Source: a virus
Direction: 5' to 3' (one strand)
Virus record (IMG/VR): IMGVR_UViG_2974606986_000001
Coordinates: 10,017 to 74,016 of that record
Length of the DNA stretch: 64,000 bases
Shown here: piece after piece, positions 10,649 through 62,030 of the stretch
Layout: the number at the start of each line of letters is the position of its first letter
How positions within the stretch are numbered: the stretch's first letter is position 1
The notes under the pieces: generated by a model
Database searches by the model: none
Seen by the model: only the letters and a program-made list of their open reading frames with translations
Told to the model about the DNA's origin: nothing
Program-made: the position numbers and the translations under genes

Positions 10649-10688
10649 GGTGTTTCCTCTTTCTGAATAATATTGCTGGTGGAGTCAC

Positions 10689-10720
10689 ATAGTAATTAAA
10701 CCAGCGAACGTCGTCAACCG
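10689..10720 (-). promoter_or_regulatory. Early sigma70-type promoter, conserved phage motif
   Basis: TTGACG(10717-10712)-17 bp-TACTAT(10694-10689). Confidence 0.8.
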
Positions 10721-10737
10721 ATGTTTTATTCAGGGCG

Positions 10738-10765
10738 AAAAAAAACCCGGTGGTTAACCGGGCTT
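10738..10765 (-). terminator. Rho-independent terminator after holin cassette
   Basis: Minus strand GCCCGG-loop-CCGGGT followed by T8. Confidence 0.7.
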
Positions 10766-10778
10766 CCTGTCTGGCTGG

Positions 10779-11120
10779 TCAGGTACGCTGAAACCTCCTG
10801 CCTACCTTGTAAACCTGAACCGACTTATAAACACCGCGAATCGCCATCAGGATTATCATCGACTTCACTATCTGATGCGGCATGTCGCTTTCAAGGCCCA
10901 CGCAAAAGGCCGCGAACGCCACAATGGACATAAAAAAATGCCAGATGGTGTCGAATAATCCAGCTGATGACTGGCGGTGAATAACCCGGTAAACACTGGT
11001 CAGGCATAGTAACGCGGTGCAGGTCAGTCCCAGGGGGGATGACCAGAACGATTGAGCAATATGGGAAGGGCCAAAAACAGTGCTACTATGCCATCCCAGC
11101 CAGATCAGGAATTCATTCAT
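10779..11120 (-). CDS. Multi-pass membrane protein, possible antiholin or second holin
   Basis: Three hydrophobic segments, basic C-terminus, overlaps putative holin stop. Confidence 0.55.
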   Translation of the reverse strand: MNEFLIWLGWHSSTVFGPSHIAQSFWSSPLGLTCTALLCLTSVYRVIHRQSSAGLFDTIWHFFMSIVAFAAFCVGLESDMPHQIVKSMIILMAIRGVYKSVQVYKVGRRFQRT

Positions 11121-15083: not shown

Positions 15084-15110
15084 AAAAAGGCCCCGTCCGG
15101 GGCCTTTCTT
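15082..15110. terminator. Bidirectional rho-independent terminator
   Basis: AAAAAAAGGCCCC-GTCC-GGGGCCTTTCTT. Confidence 0.8.
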
Positions 15111-15207
15111 ATATCGACATCCACCCGCGCATGATGGCGTATTTGATGCCAGCGGCTATCAGCAGACCAGCCAGCGCAGTTATGATCCCGGTTGCTTTAC
15201 TGCTCAC
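15109..15207 (-). CDS. Small membrane peptide (32 aa), absent from ORF track
   Basis: MSSKATGIITALAGLLIAAGIKYAIMRGWMSI; GTG start overlapping upstream gene, stop at terminator. Confidence 0.5.
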   Translation of the reverse strand: MSSKATGIITALAGLLIAAGIKYAIMRGWMSI

Positions 15208-20068: not shown

Positions 20069-20100
20069 ATAGTAATTAAACACGCATATGTCGTCAACCG
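20069..20100 (-). promoter_or_regulatory. Early sigma70-type promoter, conserved phage motif
   Basis: TTGACG(20097-20092)-17 bp-TACTAT(20074-20069). Confidence 0.8.
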
Positions 20101-20117
20101 ATATTTTGATTCAGACG

Positions 20118-20142
20118 AAAAAAAACCGGGCGGACCCGGCTT
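20118..20142 (-). terminator. Rho-independent terminator after spanins
   Basis: CCGGG-TCCG-CCCGG then T8 on minus strand. Confidence 0.7.
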
Positions 20143-20641
20143 AGTTTTTTCTGGCCTGCATGGCCCTGATGATGTCCTGAAGTTCATTCACTTTGTCGCG
20201 GAGTCGGTTCCCTTCGCGTCCGGTTTGAACAAGAAATTCGACATCAGCGTCTGATAATCCGCAGTCTCTGGCTCCATCAGTCGGGCGTCCACTGGCGGCA
20301 TTTTGGGACATGTCCCGATAACAGGTGAATTGTTCGCGCAGCCGCTTATTACCAGCGCGATAATCAGCCAGGGTTTTTTCATAGGTGCTATCTCTTAGTT
20401 TCTGATTGGCTGCGGACTTGCCCACGACGGCAGCAAACTTCTCTGCCCATGTGGCGTAATTATCAGCGTCGGTCTGCGCGGCTATGACCTGCGCGCGAAG
20501 ATCTGCCGCATCCCTTTCCAGCCATTTATCCTTCCAGTGGGAATTGACCAGCGCCCCGGATAGCGCCGCTGCCCCCAGCAAAAGCAGGGCGAAAACGCCC
20601 CACTTTAACCACGGCAGGATCCCGGCAGGAATGACCGGCAA
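20141..20641 (-). CDS. Rz: Inner-membrane spanin (Rz-like)
   Basis: N-terminal TM, coiled coil, C-terminal CGLSDADVEFLV...LQDIIRA; embedded lipoprotein gene. Confidence 0.8.
   Translation of the reverse strand: MPVIPAGILPWLKWGVFALLLLGAAALSGALVNSHWKDKWLERDAADLRAQVIAAQTDADNYATWAEKFAAVVGKSAANQKLRDSTYEKTLADYRAGNKRLREQFTCYRDMSQNAASGRPTDGARDCGLSDADVEFLVQTGREGNRLRDKVNELQDIIRAMQARKN
20188..20382 (-). CDS. Rz1: Outer-membrane spanin lipoprotein (Rz1-like), embedded in a different frame
   Basis: Lipobox ISGC, Pro-rich CPKMPPVDARLMEP; nested in i-spanin. Confidence 0.8.
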   Translation of the reverse strand: MKKPWLIIALVISGCANNSPVIGTCPKMPPVDARLMEPETADYQTLMSNFLFKPDAKGTDSATK

Positions 20642-28704: not shown

Positions 28705-31700
28705 GTGATCACTATGTCAACAATGAATGGCGGCGCGGGTGGTATCCTGGTTTTACCCGGCCAGAACGGCGGGACCGCAGGCAATAAGCCGACCAGCAAA
28801 CCGCAACCACCCAGCCTTCAGGACATCATCAGCGGGTCTGAAAAGACCGTCCTTTTTGCGCTTATCACTGAATTCCTGAAACTGAATCCCGACGCAGTCA
28901 GCGCTGCTGACCCGAAAGTGATCAAAGCAGCTGTTATTGAATATCTGGACCAGAATCCGATCACTGCCGGTCTGGATGCTGCGGCTGTCCAGGGATTGAT
29001 CAACACATCAATTCAGGCAATCCGACAGGGACACACCGACACTGAAATCCAGAACATCATTAACACCTTCATTGCGACGAATCCGCCCAGCTTCAATGAT
29101 GCGGTTAAAAAGTATCTGAAGGATAACCCGGTATCGGGTGGCGGTGGTCTGGGCGAAGATCAGATTAACGATCTGATTGAACTTTACATCGCCGCGAATG
29201 GCTACAACAACGACGCGAGCGACATCAATAATCTGATTCAGGGCTGGATTGCCTCGCATCCTATTTCGGCCACCATCGATCCTGCGGTGCTGACGAAGGC
29301 GATCACTGATTACCTGAAAGCAAACCCGGTTGTTCCTGATTCAGACGCTGTCGAAGCGGCTGTCACGGCCTATTTCAATGCCCATCCTCCAGCCGCTGGC
29401 GTCAGTCCTGCGCAGATGACGAAGGCGCTTTCGGACCTGCTGGCATCGACTGACTTCACCACGGCTGTTGTTGCTTCCATTAAGGCTGAAGAAGCAAACC
29501 TGTTAGCCCAGGACGCATTCAAAAATGCTGTTAACGGGATGATCACTGCCGCGTTGACTGCGAAGGATTTCACCGCTGACATTACCGCAGCTATCAATCA
29601 GTATTTCAGCACGCATCCGCAGCGCACTGACGCGCAGGTGAAAGCGCTGGTGGCCGCGTGGATCAATGATAACCCGCAAGGTCTAAGCCAGGCCGAAGTC
29701 GAAGCCGCCATCGTGGCATACCTGACCGCTAACCCGCCAGGTGATGTCAGCGCTGCTGATATTGAAGCCGCAGTGAACACCTATCTGGGCGCACATCCGC
29801 CATCTGGTGGTGTGCGTGAATTCGCATCGTTTGACCTGCTGTGTAAGGCTAAGCCGTCGAAAGAGGGTGAGCGCGTCTGGCTGGCAAACCACAACCCACG
29901 GTTACCGGCTGGCAACATGGCGCAAGGCCAGGGCTACTTCGTCGGTCACATTGTGACTTCATCAATGAAATATCGAACCCCGGATGGTGGTTTATTCGCT
30001 GGCGTTAACACGGATAAAACCTACTTCTGGATCCGCGATATTTCACTTGAAGAATTGAACGTTACCCACTTCGGCGCGATGGGTGTGGTAGGGGTGAAAA
30101 GCGATAACCGCGCTGGCGCTATTGATGACAGCCCGGCACTGATCGCGATGTATGACTGTCTGAAGTCAGCCCAGACTAAAGCAATTTTCCCGAACTCGGA
30201 AATGGCCCCGGTTAAATTCCCTGCTGGTGCGTACATGATCAACCCGGTCGACCTGACAACCCGTGGCGCGAAAACGTCTGATGCCAAAATGCTGGAAGCC
30301 CGTAAAAAGGCGATCTGGACAGCGTCCCGCAAACCATGGGATGGGAATAAGTTCGGCCAGGGCGTCGGCACTGGTGGCGCGAACGTGTCGAAGTGGGAAA
30401 ACGTCGACGTGGACGCGGTGAAGAACAGCACGAATGCAGACATCAAAAAACTGTATGTCGAATTCCCGGCGTCAGAAAACCATAACGGTTACGAACAGGC
30501 TGGCTTCTTCGGCATGACCGGCCCGTCGGTTCCTTATGGCCGTGCGCCGCAGGTGACGATCTTCAGTAACAAACAGCAGGACAGTTACGTCATCGACCTG
30601 AAGCACTCGCTGTGTGTGATTCAGGGCATCGAATTTGATGGCGAGATTAAAGAAGGGTTCAACTGGAACACCGACGCGACGAAAGGCCCGATTAACGGTC
30701 CTGCGTTCACTGGAACCATTGCTGGCGGTAATCTGGTCGTACCATCTGCACCATCGAATAATCAGGGCTTTCTTCATAACTGGCGCAACTCCGGCCAGTA
30801 TTACAGCGTGACCAACTTCCGCGCTCAGAGTGTCGGCGGTCGCACGTTCGATGTTAAAGACACACTGGACAGCCAGTTCGATCAGATCTATTCCGGCCAG
30901 TGCTGGGGTGAAGTGATCTGCGTAGGCTGGACCAATATTATTGAAGGTGCCTGGAACCATTCGACAGCTGTCGAAATCAGTAATAGCAACTTCCAGCAGA
31001 TGTTAAGCAAACCGGCCATTGTGCTGGCACGAACTGCGCAATCTATCGTCCGTAACGTCTGGATTGAGCATTCACTTTGCCCTGCTGACTTCTCGCTAAG
31101 CCACCTGATTATGGATATGTTCTGCGTCGAATCGTCAAACTTTGACGTTCACGCGTGGAACTCACGCATAACGCTGAACAACCTGTCTAACCCGACTGGC
31201 GTGAACATCGATCTGGATACCGGACCTTACCTGACCGGCGTCACCAGCTGGGATCCTGCCACCTGGAAGATCAACCCTAAATGGCATAGTAATATTGCAT
31301 TGCCAGATGGTTCTGCGTTCCCGTCATGGGACAAATACTTCGCATGGCCGGGCGGTTCGTATTACTTCAGTAATATTTCGGCATACGAACCAAACCATCT
31401 GCACACTGAAAGCTATGGTATCGAAACCCGTGGGACCATTAAGACGGGTTATAGTGCCGGATGGCGTTTGCAGAACTACAGCGAAAAGGAAATGTGGGTC
31501 CGCTGCGGTACGTTCCAGAACCAGCAGGCCAACGGCTCAGCTCAGGCAGCATGGAAGGCTTCAGATGCTGGTAAAGCCTATACCGAATCTGTTATCGACT
31601 TCGCCTATAATGCCTGGCTGGCAACCGCCGCAGGGCAGGCTGCTGACGACGCAGCGAAGACGGCAAAACGGAAGGCGCTCAGTGATGGGGCTTATTCAAA

Positions 31701-59819: not shown

Positions 59820-59960
59820 CCAAAAGTGGATAAAGTGGATAAGGTATCGGATGACACTAAGAGGGGGTAAGGTACTGTATAGTATATATATATTAATATA
59901 TTTATATATTATATTATTTATATTACAGAATACCCCTCTACACCCTCCCCTTGGGACCCT
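59820..59960. other. Putative replication origin
   Basis: About 60 bp nearly pure A/T core flanked by inverted AGAGGGG(G)TA/TACCCCTCT and CTGTA/TACAG; two tandem TTATCCACT; intergenic divergence point next to primase. Confidence 0.6.
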
Positions 59961-60151: not shown

Positions 60152-60180
60152 TTGACTTCCGCTGGTGGTTTAATTACTAT
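60152..60180 (+). promoter_or_regulatory. Early sigma70-type promoter
   Basis: TTGACT-17 bp-TACTAT with TAAT extension. Confidence 0.75.
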
Positions 60181-60237: not shown

Positions 60238-61035
60238 ATGTTCGACATGACAAAAACAGAAATCATCAAGTGTGACCTGAACGGGATCACCTGCGGGATG
60301 GAATGGTCACAACCTGAAGGCCGCGATATGCCGGTGATCAAATTCCGGTTTGAAGAGCACGACACCAACCGGACTATCTTCCACAAAACGAGAATCTTCA
60401 GTCAGCGGGAAGACACCCGCGAAAAAGCGGTCACCGGCCTGAACGAAATCGACCACGCGATGAAAGCTGGTGGCGCTATCGTCAAAGCAGCTTTAGACGT
60501 CGGGCCATACGCTGAAAATCATCGGTCTGATATCGACATCGTAATGGCTGCTGATTTGGATTCGGTGCTGGTGGGCGTTAAGGGGGTGATAGTGGTCTAT
60601 CGCCATTCGGAGTCGACAGATCCGAAGTCCGGGCGGGTTTACACCAGCAGCTTTGTTCATCGGGTGTTGCCGTGGGACGAAAACATCGAAGCGGTGATCA
60701 GCAACGTGCATCCTGATGACTTCATCGGCATGCGTGGTGACGTGGCGAGCTTTTGCCAAACGAAGGAATGGCTGATTGTGCGCCGTGAAGTGCTGAAACT
60801 GTTTGGGGCGCGCTGTTTGTGCTGCGGGGCCACCAGCGCGAATGCGGTGATCACGGTCGATCACATCATCCCGCGAAGCCGGAAGCCAGCGCTGTCGCTA
60901 TCGCCTTCAAACCTTCAGGTGTTGTGCAGAGAGTGCAACGTTGGCAAAGGGTCAGATGACGAAACCGACTATCGAAGCGATGACCAAATCGAAGCGGCTC
61001 GCCGTCTTGAAAAAACGATGACCAGTGACGATTGA
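60238..61035 (+). CDS. HNH endonuclease domain protein
   Basis: C-terminal CLCCG...VDHIIP..RKP..NLQVLCRECNVGK. Confidence 0.85.
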   Translation: MFDMTKTEIIKCDLNGITCGMEWSQPEGRDMPVIKFRFEEHDTNRTIFHKTRIFSQREDTREKAVTGLNEIDHAMKAGGAIVKAALDVGPYAENHRSDIDIVMAADLDSVLVGVKGVIVVYRHSESTDPKSGRVYTSSFVHRVLPWDENIEAVISNVHPDDFIGMRGDVASFCQTKEWLIVRREVLKLFGARCLCCGATSANAVITVDHIIPRSRKPALSLSPSNLQVLCRECNVGKGSDDETDYRSDDQIEAARRLEKTMTSDD

Positions 61036-61060
61036 CGGTTACCGAATTACGGGTTATATT
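61032..61060 (+). promoter_or_regulatory. Sigma70-type promoter
   Basis: TTGACG(61032-37)-17 bp-TATATT(61055-60). Confidence 0.65.
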
Positions 61061-61066
61061 CTCCGT

Positions 61067-61152
61067 GCCTGAATGACAAGCTCGACGTTATAAGAATAGC
61101 TCTGTTGCTGATTTGACCCTGGCGGGTTGTCCGACTCGCCAGGGTTTTTTTT
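61067..61152 (+). ncRNA. Candidate ~85-nt small RNA
   Basis: Promoter directly followed by terminator; only a 6-codon ORF without clear RBS between them. Confidence 0.4.
61116..61152 (+). terminator. Strong rho-independent terminator
   Basis: ACCCTGGCGGGTT-GTCC-GACTCGCCAGGGT then a T run. Confidence 0.85.
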
Positions 61153-61219
61153 CGCCTGCGGATTGACTGTCGGTTACCGTGTGGTAAATTCCGTGTCGAC
61201 AACCTATCAGGGCCGGACA

Positions 61220-61483
61220 ATGAAAACCGAAATTGACTGCATCGTGTATCACAATCTCACCATGGAAGCGGCCTGCGTTGAACGCCGCGTGAATGACTCC
61301 GACATCACCAAAGCCAGAAAGGCAAAGCTGTACACTGACGCTGGCATCTGCTGGCTTCAGGCAATGCGCCGCAGCAAGCGCGACGAAGTCACATATGCCG
61401 AACGCCGCCTGGACTTCTGCCGGGCAGCACTCATCCGGCTGGGTCGCCATGACCTGGCCCAACAACTGGACGCCACCCGATGA
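61220..61483 (+). CDS. Hypothetical protein
   Basis: ATG 61220; tiles with next gene. Confidence 0.6.
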   Translation: MKTEIDCIVYHNLTMEAACVERRVNDSDITKARKAKLYTDAGICWLQAMRRSKRDEVTYAERRLDFCRAALIRLGRHDLAQQLDATR

Positions 61484-61998: not shown

Positions 61999-62030
61999 CG
62001 GTTGACGACATGCGATAGTTTAATTACTAT
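61999..62030 (+). promoter_or_regulatory. Early sigma70-type promoter, full conserved motif
   Basis: CGG-TTGACG(62002-07)-AC...TAAT-TACTAT(62025-30), 17-bp spacer. Confidence 0.85.

Follow-up and report, generated by a model that had tools for sequence, protein, structure and literature searches.

In Salmonella, the small RNA DapZ is transcribed from a promoter that shortly precedes the stop codon of dapB (PMC9438474). Among phages, the lambdoid pR′-tR′ layout gives an abundant short RNA, which acts as an sRNA in Stx phages (PMC12197685), and the lambda sRNA LPR1/PreS, found by Hfq RIL-seq, has dnaN as its target and is widely conserved (10.1101/2024.10.31.621285). T4-type phages carry PeSLs, composites of a stem-loop terminator and a sigma70-like early promoter which insulate accessory genes and serve as recombination points (PMC2839356, PMC4122927). 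We compared with these systems a locus of Pantoea phage LIET2, a lytic myovirus, in which a sigma70-type promoter (P1) at the end of an HNH endonuclease gene is followed by a strong intrinsic terminator and then by a second promoter (P2) ahead of the next gene (Table 1).

The window, i.e. the whole 64,000-nt stretch of DNA that was analysed, covers positions 10017-74016 of the complete 74,710-bp virus record. Pantoea phages Nafs113 and vB_PagM_LIET2 are the sole meaningful relatives of each other, and both are lytic myoviruses with elongated heads (PMC9915841). Across the locus, identity to Nafs113 (OK570186; genus Lietduovirus, species LIET2) is 97 %, and a scan of metagenomes yielded a single relative, fragment L003, which is 98 % identical and derives from the same near-identical phage. 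Two further IMG/VR fragments of this phage (L006 and L007), both with the locus outside them, were recovered by scanning for the canonical early promoter described below; L007 bridges genome position 74710 to position 1, from which it follows that the LIET2 map is circular or permuted. The layout of the locus is the same and collinear in all three known genomes (LIET2, Nafs113 and L003). Within the intergenic region Nafs113 differs by 5 substitutions in 185 nt (at 61064, 61066, 61094, 61158 and 61175), in line with the background rate; the P1 hexamers, the P1 spacer and the hairpin are free of changes, which carries no information at 3 % divergence, and both P1 and the hairpin are identical in Nafs113 and L003. 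As the relatives compared are as close as 95-97 % identity, conservation and covariation are uninformative for the unit formed by P1 and the hairpin. ORF125 and ORF126 had no matches in IMG/VR and genome contigs, and in the phage collection their sole match was Nafs113; homologues of ORF125, the gene downstream of the hairpin, exist at 54-78 % identity.

Table 1. Features of the LIET2 locus and of related elements elsewhere in the genome (window coordinates unless marked otherwise)
Feature	Position	Strand	Basis or remark
HNH endonuclease gene, 265 aa	60238-61035	+	ORF list; Pfam HNH PF01844, E 1.5e-10
P1, sigma70-type promoter, TTGACG-17 bp-TATATT, 10/12	61032-61060	+	promoter scan
Palindrome CGGTTACCG, candidate operator, in P1 spacer	61036-61044		genome motif count
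5′ part of predicted transcript, 48 nt	61067-61114	+	start placed at G61067
Decayed promoter-like segment, TGACAA..GTTATA.AGAATAGCT, 13-bp spacer	61074-61101	+	gapped local alignment
Intrinsic terminator, 12-14 bp stem, GTCC loop, T8	61115-61152	+ only	fold, terminator scan
P2, sigma70-type promoter, TTGACT-16 bp-TG-TAAATT	61163-61190	+	promoter scan; 10 nt past T8
Downstream gene, 87 aa, first of P2 unit	61220-61483	+	homologues; AGGG 7 nt upstream
Canonical promoters, examples	62002-62030; 60152-60180; 46595-46567 (-)		genome-wide scan
Promoter at genome 8616, canonical-type, TGGACA-T-CGGTCACCG-ACTTAAT-TACTAT	palindrome L005:302-310 = genome 8601-8609	-	drives ~77-aa ORF
Second gene-less unit	L004:321-499 = genome 74120-74298, just past window end, 3 kb downstream		promoter, fold, ORF scan
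Terminator/promoter junctions	genome 20764/20733 (-); 30143/30113 (-); 71161/71179 (= P2); 74289/74316		motif + terminator scan

The HNH gene, for which the Nafs113 annotation likewise gives an HNH endonuclease, belongs to a transcription unit driven by the promoter at 60152. Its TGA stop codon (61033-61035) falls within the -35 hexamer of P1 (TTGACG, 61032-61037), with the -10 hexamer TATATT at 61055-61060. An earlier note on this DNA, made from the letters alone, had reported TTGACG-17-TATATT followed some 55 nt on by a hairpin and T run, and all of these elements are present where it placed them, the stem being 12-14 bp. Promoter matches of 10/12 or better are found at just 8 sites in 149 kb (both strands), a frequency of some 0.5 % per 100 nt. 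Across the region, neither promoter-like nor terminator-like matches were more numerous than in shuffled sequences; such counts alone therefore prove nothing, and the argument for P1 rests on its placement.

Most of the promoter landscape against which P1 has to be judged is formed by a conserved early promoter, cGGTTGACGAC-N12-(T)TAATTACTAT, of which we identified about 14 copies genome-wide before genes on both strands. The phage thus clearly depends on host sigma70 RNA polymerase for its early genes. These canonical promoters are neither annotated in the Nafs113 record for that stretch nor mentioned in its paper. P1 and P2 fall outside this class and are instead similar to each other, with GATTGAC, CGGTTACCG and ATTC-CGTG in common, indels between these parts and spacers kept at 17 and 16 bp. 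This likeness was established by local alignment and an exact 9-mer; a MAFFT alignment of the pair is poor, and the spacing of the motifs differs. In the divergent gap between the primase/polymerase block on the minus strand and the early plus-strand genes, an imperfect 31-nt inverted repeat of 29 % GC (window 59871-59934) is a possible origin or divergent control region.

The palindrome CGGTNACCG is present in six copies in the genome, three of which lie inside promoter spacers just past the -35 hexamer, compared with 0.088 expected in promoters (Poisson P about 1e-4). The three promoters are P1, P2 (copy at 61171-61179) and an early promoter on the minus strand at genome 8616. In Nafs113 and L003 the central base alone of the P2 copy is altered while both arms are retained. 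We regard CGGTNACCG as a candidate operator for a DNA-binding regulator of phage or host origin, and as such it is a motif open to direct testing. Of the in-silico arguments that P1 would be under selection and regulated, and more than a fortuitous match, the enrichment of this motif is the strongest. Given that the palindrome is common to P1, P2 and the third early promoter, P1 is probably a real promoter, active and co-regulated with the other two.

The hairpin begins 55 nt past P1. Its core stem (61117-61128 paired with 61133-61144) comprises 12 bp, two of them G-U, and extends to 14 bp from 61115, with the T8 run at 61145-61152. At -21.7 kcal/mol and with T8 it is the strongest compact intrinsic terminator of the genome and the sole terminator downstream of the HNH gene. 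The distance from the HNH stop codon to the T run is 109 nt, compared with 13-58 nt at eleven other good terminators. Long spacers of this kind are otherwise found at the second gene-less unit (165 nt) and at genome 25104 on the minus strand; the latter is accounted for by a 32-aa ORF, and nothing comparable is present behind the HNH gene. That ORF, at genome 25104-25215 (window about 15088-15199), has 32 hydrophobic codons with a GTG start, directly precedes a strong terminator and seems to be unannotated.

The order of a hairpin, a run of 8-9 T and then a promoter recurs at four junctions in the genome, three of which have the motif T8-CG(C/T)C(C)TG in common. The junction motif GGGTTTTTTTTCGCC..TG is identical over 15 nt between this locus and the minus-strand junction at genome 20764, and similar at 30143, also on the minus strand. 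The two minus-strand junctions lie at genome 20700-20800 and 30085-30175 (window 10684-10784 and 20069-20159). Judged by its sequence, the segment 61115-61190 is a composite junction, terminator then promoter, which would separate early genes and is not a dedicated sRNA terminator. Since the hairpin is part of a repeated junction, it would primarily terminate the HNH unit and keep the P2 unit insulated.

This junction is concealed in the public annotation. The public version of the downstream gene is a CDS of 118 aa which starts at TTG 61127, inside the hairpin, while five homologues of 87-92 aa align from ATG 61220; the 118-aa call is therefore over-extended, and its correction uncovers both the terminator and P2. 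The 87-aa product has no match in Pfam. Features from a protein language model point, with a high score, to PerC-family small transcriptional activators, an assignment to be taken as a lead only.

Taking the start at G61067 from the usual 7-nt distance, the transcript from P1 is predicted to be 84-86 nt long. The predicted RNA has a minimum free energy of -30.2 kcal/mol (z = -3.2), and its centroid structure consists of the terminator hairpin alone. The 48 nt upstream of the hairpin had been described as an unstructured A/U-rich stretch; the composition holds, at 58 % A+U, but with a mean unpaired probability of 0.54 the folding model makes this 5′ part only moderately open and not fully unstructured. 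The single ATG ORF between P1 and the hairpin is MTSSTL, 6 codons at 61073-61093 without a Shine-Dalgarno sequence, which agrees with the 6-codon ORF lacking an RBS described in the earlier note, and the remaining starts open 3-17 codons, none a credible ORF. Within the same 5′ part, 61074-61101 aligns with the 11/12 promoter at genome 74120 with a score of 29 (99th percentile of the null, 18), the best non-self match in the genome; with its spacer cut to 13 bp this segment should be dead as a promoter. No Rfam family matched the RNA, all hits being driven by the terminator and below threshold (NsiR1 scored 22 bits, with the cut-off at 39), and searches of the RNA locus against plasmids and E. 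coli genomes gave nothing at E <= 1. The interval 61036-61220 contains no tandem repeat, no repeat family and no tRNA.

A second unit without a gene is found beyond the end of the window. Its promoter, TTGACA-16 bp-TAGAAT, matches at 11/12, and the -35 hexamer holds the TGA stop codon of an upstream 76-aa ORF. The promoter is followed by about 150 nt without a credible ORF, folding into a 5′ domain plus a long terminator hairpin that carries U9, and further downstream by a promoter of the canonical type and then a 93-aa gene. The second unit had no match in Rfam. It is almost unchanged across LIET2, Nafs113 and L007, where some 280 nt contain 1 substitution; elsewhere in the genome, too, there are stretches of 100 nt that differ at no more than one position. 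The occurrence, within 3 kb, of two units built alike speaks for design, or at the least for shared descent.

These observations are best explained as follows. The hairpin with its T8, together with P2, would form the junction at which the early HNH unit ends and the next unit, with the 87-aa and 164-aa genes, starts. P1 would be an additional sigma70 promoter on the HNH stop codon, co-regulated with P2 and the third early promoter through a DNA-binding protein, and its main product would be a non-coding RNA of ~86 nt with a 3′ end in common with the HNH mRNA. With the strongest terminator of the genome only 55 nt past P1, the main product of that promoter, if it fires and termination is efficient, must be this ~86-nt RNA. 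P1 being probably an active promoter, a short RNA that ends at the hairpin and shares the 3′ end of the HNH mRNA is likely, and on balance we lean towards such a non-coding transcript being made.

A possible, if somewhat unlikely, reading is that the unit is a relic of cassette shuffling, in which recombination removed an early gene and left behind P1, a broken second promoter and the terminator, so that the RNA would be a by-product. The segment homologous to the genome 74120 promoter, cut to a 13-bp spacer, is what such an event could leave, as are the parts shared between P1 and P2 (GATTGAC, CGGTTACCG and ATTC-CGTG) with indels between them; PeSL-mediated recombination yields indels of this type in T4-type phages (PMC2839356). 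Against this, none of the three known genomes departs from the layout or carries the presumed ancestral gene. The relic reading is compatible with the explanation favoured above.

It is also rather unlikely, though conceivable, that the locus works as a terminator only. The hairpin would end the HNH unit and insulate P2, P1 would be inactive or negligible, and the upstream palindrome would help to repress P2, for example through DNA looping. The recurrence of the junction fits this, as does the distance of 135 bp between the two palindromes, which corresponds to some 13 helical turns. Were the P1 palindrome an auxiliary operator of P2 at that distance, the P1 hexamers would be incidental. P1 moreover is without the conserved extended -10 of the canonical promoters (AATTACTAT), and promoter-like matches of 9/12 are common by chance. 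A match of 10/12 with a 17-bp spacer is however rare, at the frequency given above, and the placing of a promoter on a stop codon is repeated in the second unit with an 11/12 promoter. A terminator alone would also leave the gap of 80 nt between stop codon and hairpin otherwise unexplained. Both this reading and that of a by-product of cassette shuffling are fully viable.

We consider it possible but unlikely, on the comparisons made here, that the RNA is a functional trans-acting sRNA which binds Hfq through the hairpin and U-tail and whose 5′ part pairs early in infection with mRNAs of Pantoea or of the phage. An Hfq-binding module consists of a Rho-independent terminator with a U tail of at least 6-7 and a U-rich stretch before it (after Otaka 2011, Ishikawa 2012). 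The predicted RNA fits this criterion in sequence, with its GC-rich stem of 12-14 bp, eight U and AUUUG before the stem, and it would have a strong promoter of its own and an open 5′ stretch. This stretch includes AAGAAUAGC, which can be read as three A-R-N triplets with the G to C change of Nafs113 at 61094 on an N position, a weak indication. The same early region contains the second gene-less unit, which hardly varies among three genomes, and phage-encoded sRNAs are known, among them lambda LPR1/PreS (10.1101/2024.10.31.621285) and StxS (PMC12197685).

Base pairing gave no such indication. A duplex scan of the 5′ part against the whole phage genome had a best non-self value of -37.5 kcal/mol, within the shuffled range of -33 to -40.5, and the 17 early leaders paired with it worse than random segments did, so that pairing with phage RNA was no better than in shuffled or random controls. 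The absence of an Rfam family and of E. coli or plasmid matches (E <= 1), the background rate of intergenic divergence and the membership of the hairpin in a recurrent terminator/promoter junction likewise count against a trans-acting role. In addition the proposed seed is in part a decayed promoter copy, which fits cassette shuffling and weakens the idea of a base-pairing seed. The sRNA claim of the earlier note therefore divides in two: the promoter-terminator unit should give a non-coding RNA of ~85 nt, whereas the trans-acting role through Hfq received no positive support. On present evidence the unit of P1 and hairpin is a reasonable but ordinary sRNA candidate.

The most far-reaching version of this idea, which we hold to be doubtful, would be that lytic phages of the LIET2 type possess a small early regulon marked out by the CGGTNACCG operator. 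The two gene-less units would belong to it, and their RNAs would serve as Hfq-type riboregulators of Pantoea mRNAs in the first minutes of infection. By its layout, the first unit would then be a DapZ-like sRNA located after a homing-type HNH gene. Should the RNA be produced and have a trans-acting role, the few riboregulators known in virulent phages would gain another case, this time from a genus of lytic Pantoea phages that is isolated and hardly studied, and a defined operator would be at hand for work on timing.

A regulated leader, in which transcripts from P1 would read through the hairpin into the 61220 gene by means of an antiterminator in the style of lambda pR′-tR′/Q, a leader peptide or a riboswitch, is highly improbable. 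The order of promoter, short RNA and terminator resembles pR′-tR′, hexamers resembling a -10 (TATAAG and AAGAAT) lie at about +22 to +30, and we count in its favour GCTCTGTT, which we take to be weakly boxA-like. No fold competes with the terminator, however, and nothing upstream complements the 5′ arm of the hairpin; the mini-ORF has no RBS and ends 22 nt before the stem; a search of the complete genome for the Q-type families PF03589 and PF06530 found neither while detecting its controls; and the 61220 gene has its own P2, with no Rfam riboswitch match. The alternative of an attenuator for 61220 raised earlier is unsupported for these reasons, namely the missing antiterminator fold, the missing RBS of the mini-ORF and the separate promoter of the gene. 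A crRNA mimic or type III antitoxin, also suggested earlier, finds no support either, because 61036-61220 contains no tandem repeats of about 30-36 nt.

Salmonella DapZ and Vibrio MicX (PMC9438474) resemble the LIET2 unit in having a promoter at the end of the upstream CDS, which in LIET2 lies on the stop codon itself, and in an RNA, predicted for LIET2, of ~80-90 nt whose 3′ end is the intrinsic terminator of the upstream gene, with an open 5′ part and a U-tail. They differ in that LIET2 is a lytic phage whose parent gene encodes an HNH nuclease, and in that the predicted RNA can be compared among near-identical genomes only. With the lambdoid pR′-tR′ units (lambda 6S RNA; StxS, 74 nt, PMC12197685) it has in common a strong promoter and an intrinsic terminator within about 100-200 nt, although LIET2 is lytic and non-lambdoid, PF03589/PF06530 were not found in it and its downstream genes have their own promoter. 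Like LPR1/PreS, the LIET2 RNA would be a phage-encoded small RNA proposed for host mRNAs in lytic growth, a role that for LIET2 is a proposal; experimental targets and wide conservation are features of PreS alone, and the two RNAs have no sequence similarity.

A further likeness in architecture concerns the junctions. As with the PeSLs of T4-type phages, LIET2 has a stem-loop and a strong early promoter in the gaps between accessory genes, repeated with common sequence and with signs of indels and duplication. Unlike them, the LIET2 elements belong to a Lietduovirus and not to a T4-type phage, number only four and are unrelated to the PeSL cassettes in sequence; an extra promoter before the stem-loop is not normal in PeSLs, and the LIET2 locus is collinear in Nafs113 and L003. 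We therefore file the LIET2 junctions, by analogy, as elements that may work like PeSLs and not as members of that class. LIET2 thus appears to divide its early accessory genes by means of repeated terminator/promoter junctions, in the way that PeSLs are used by T4-type phages.
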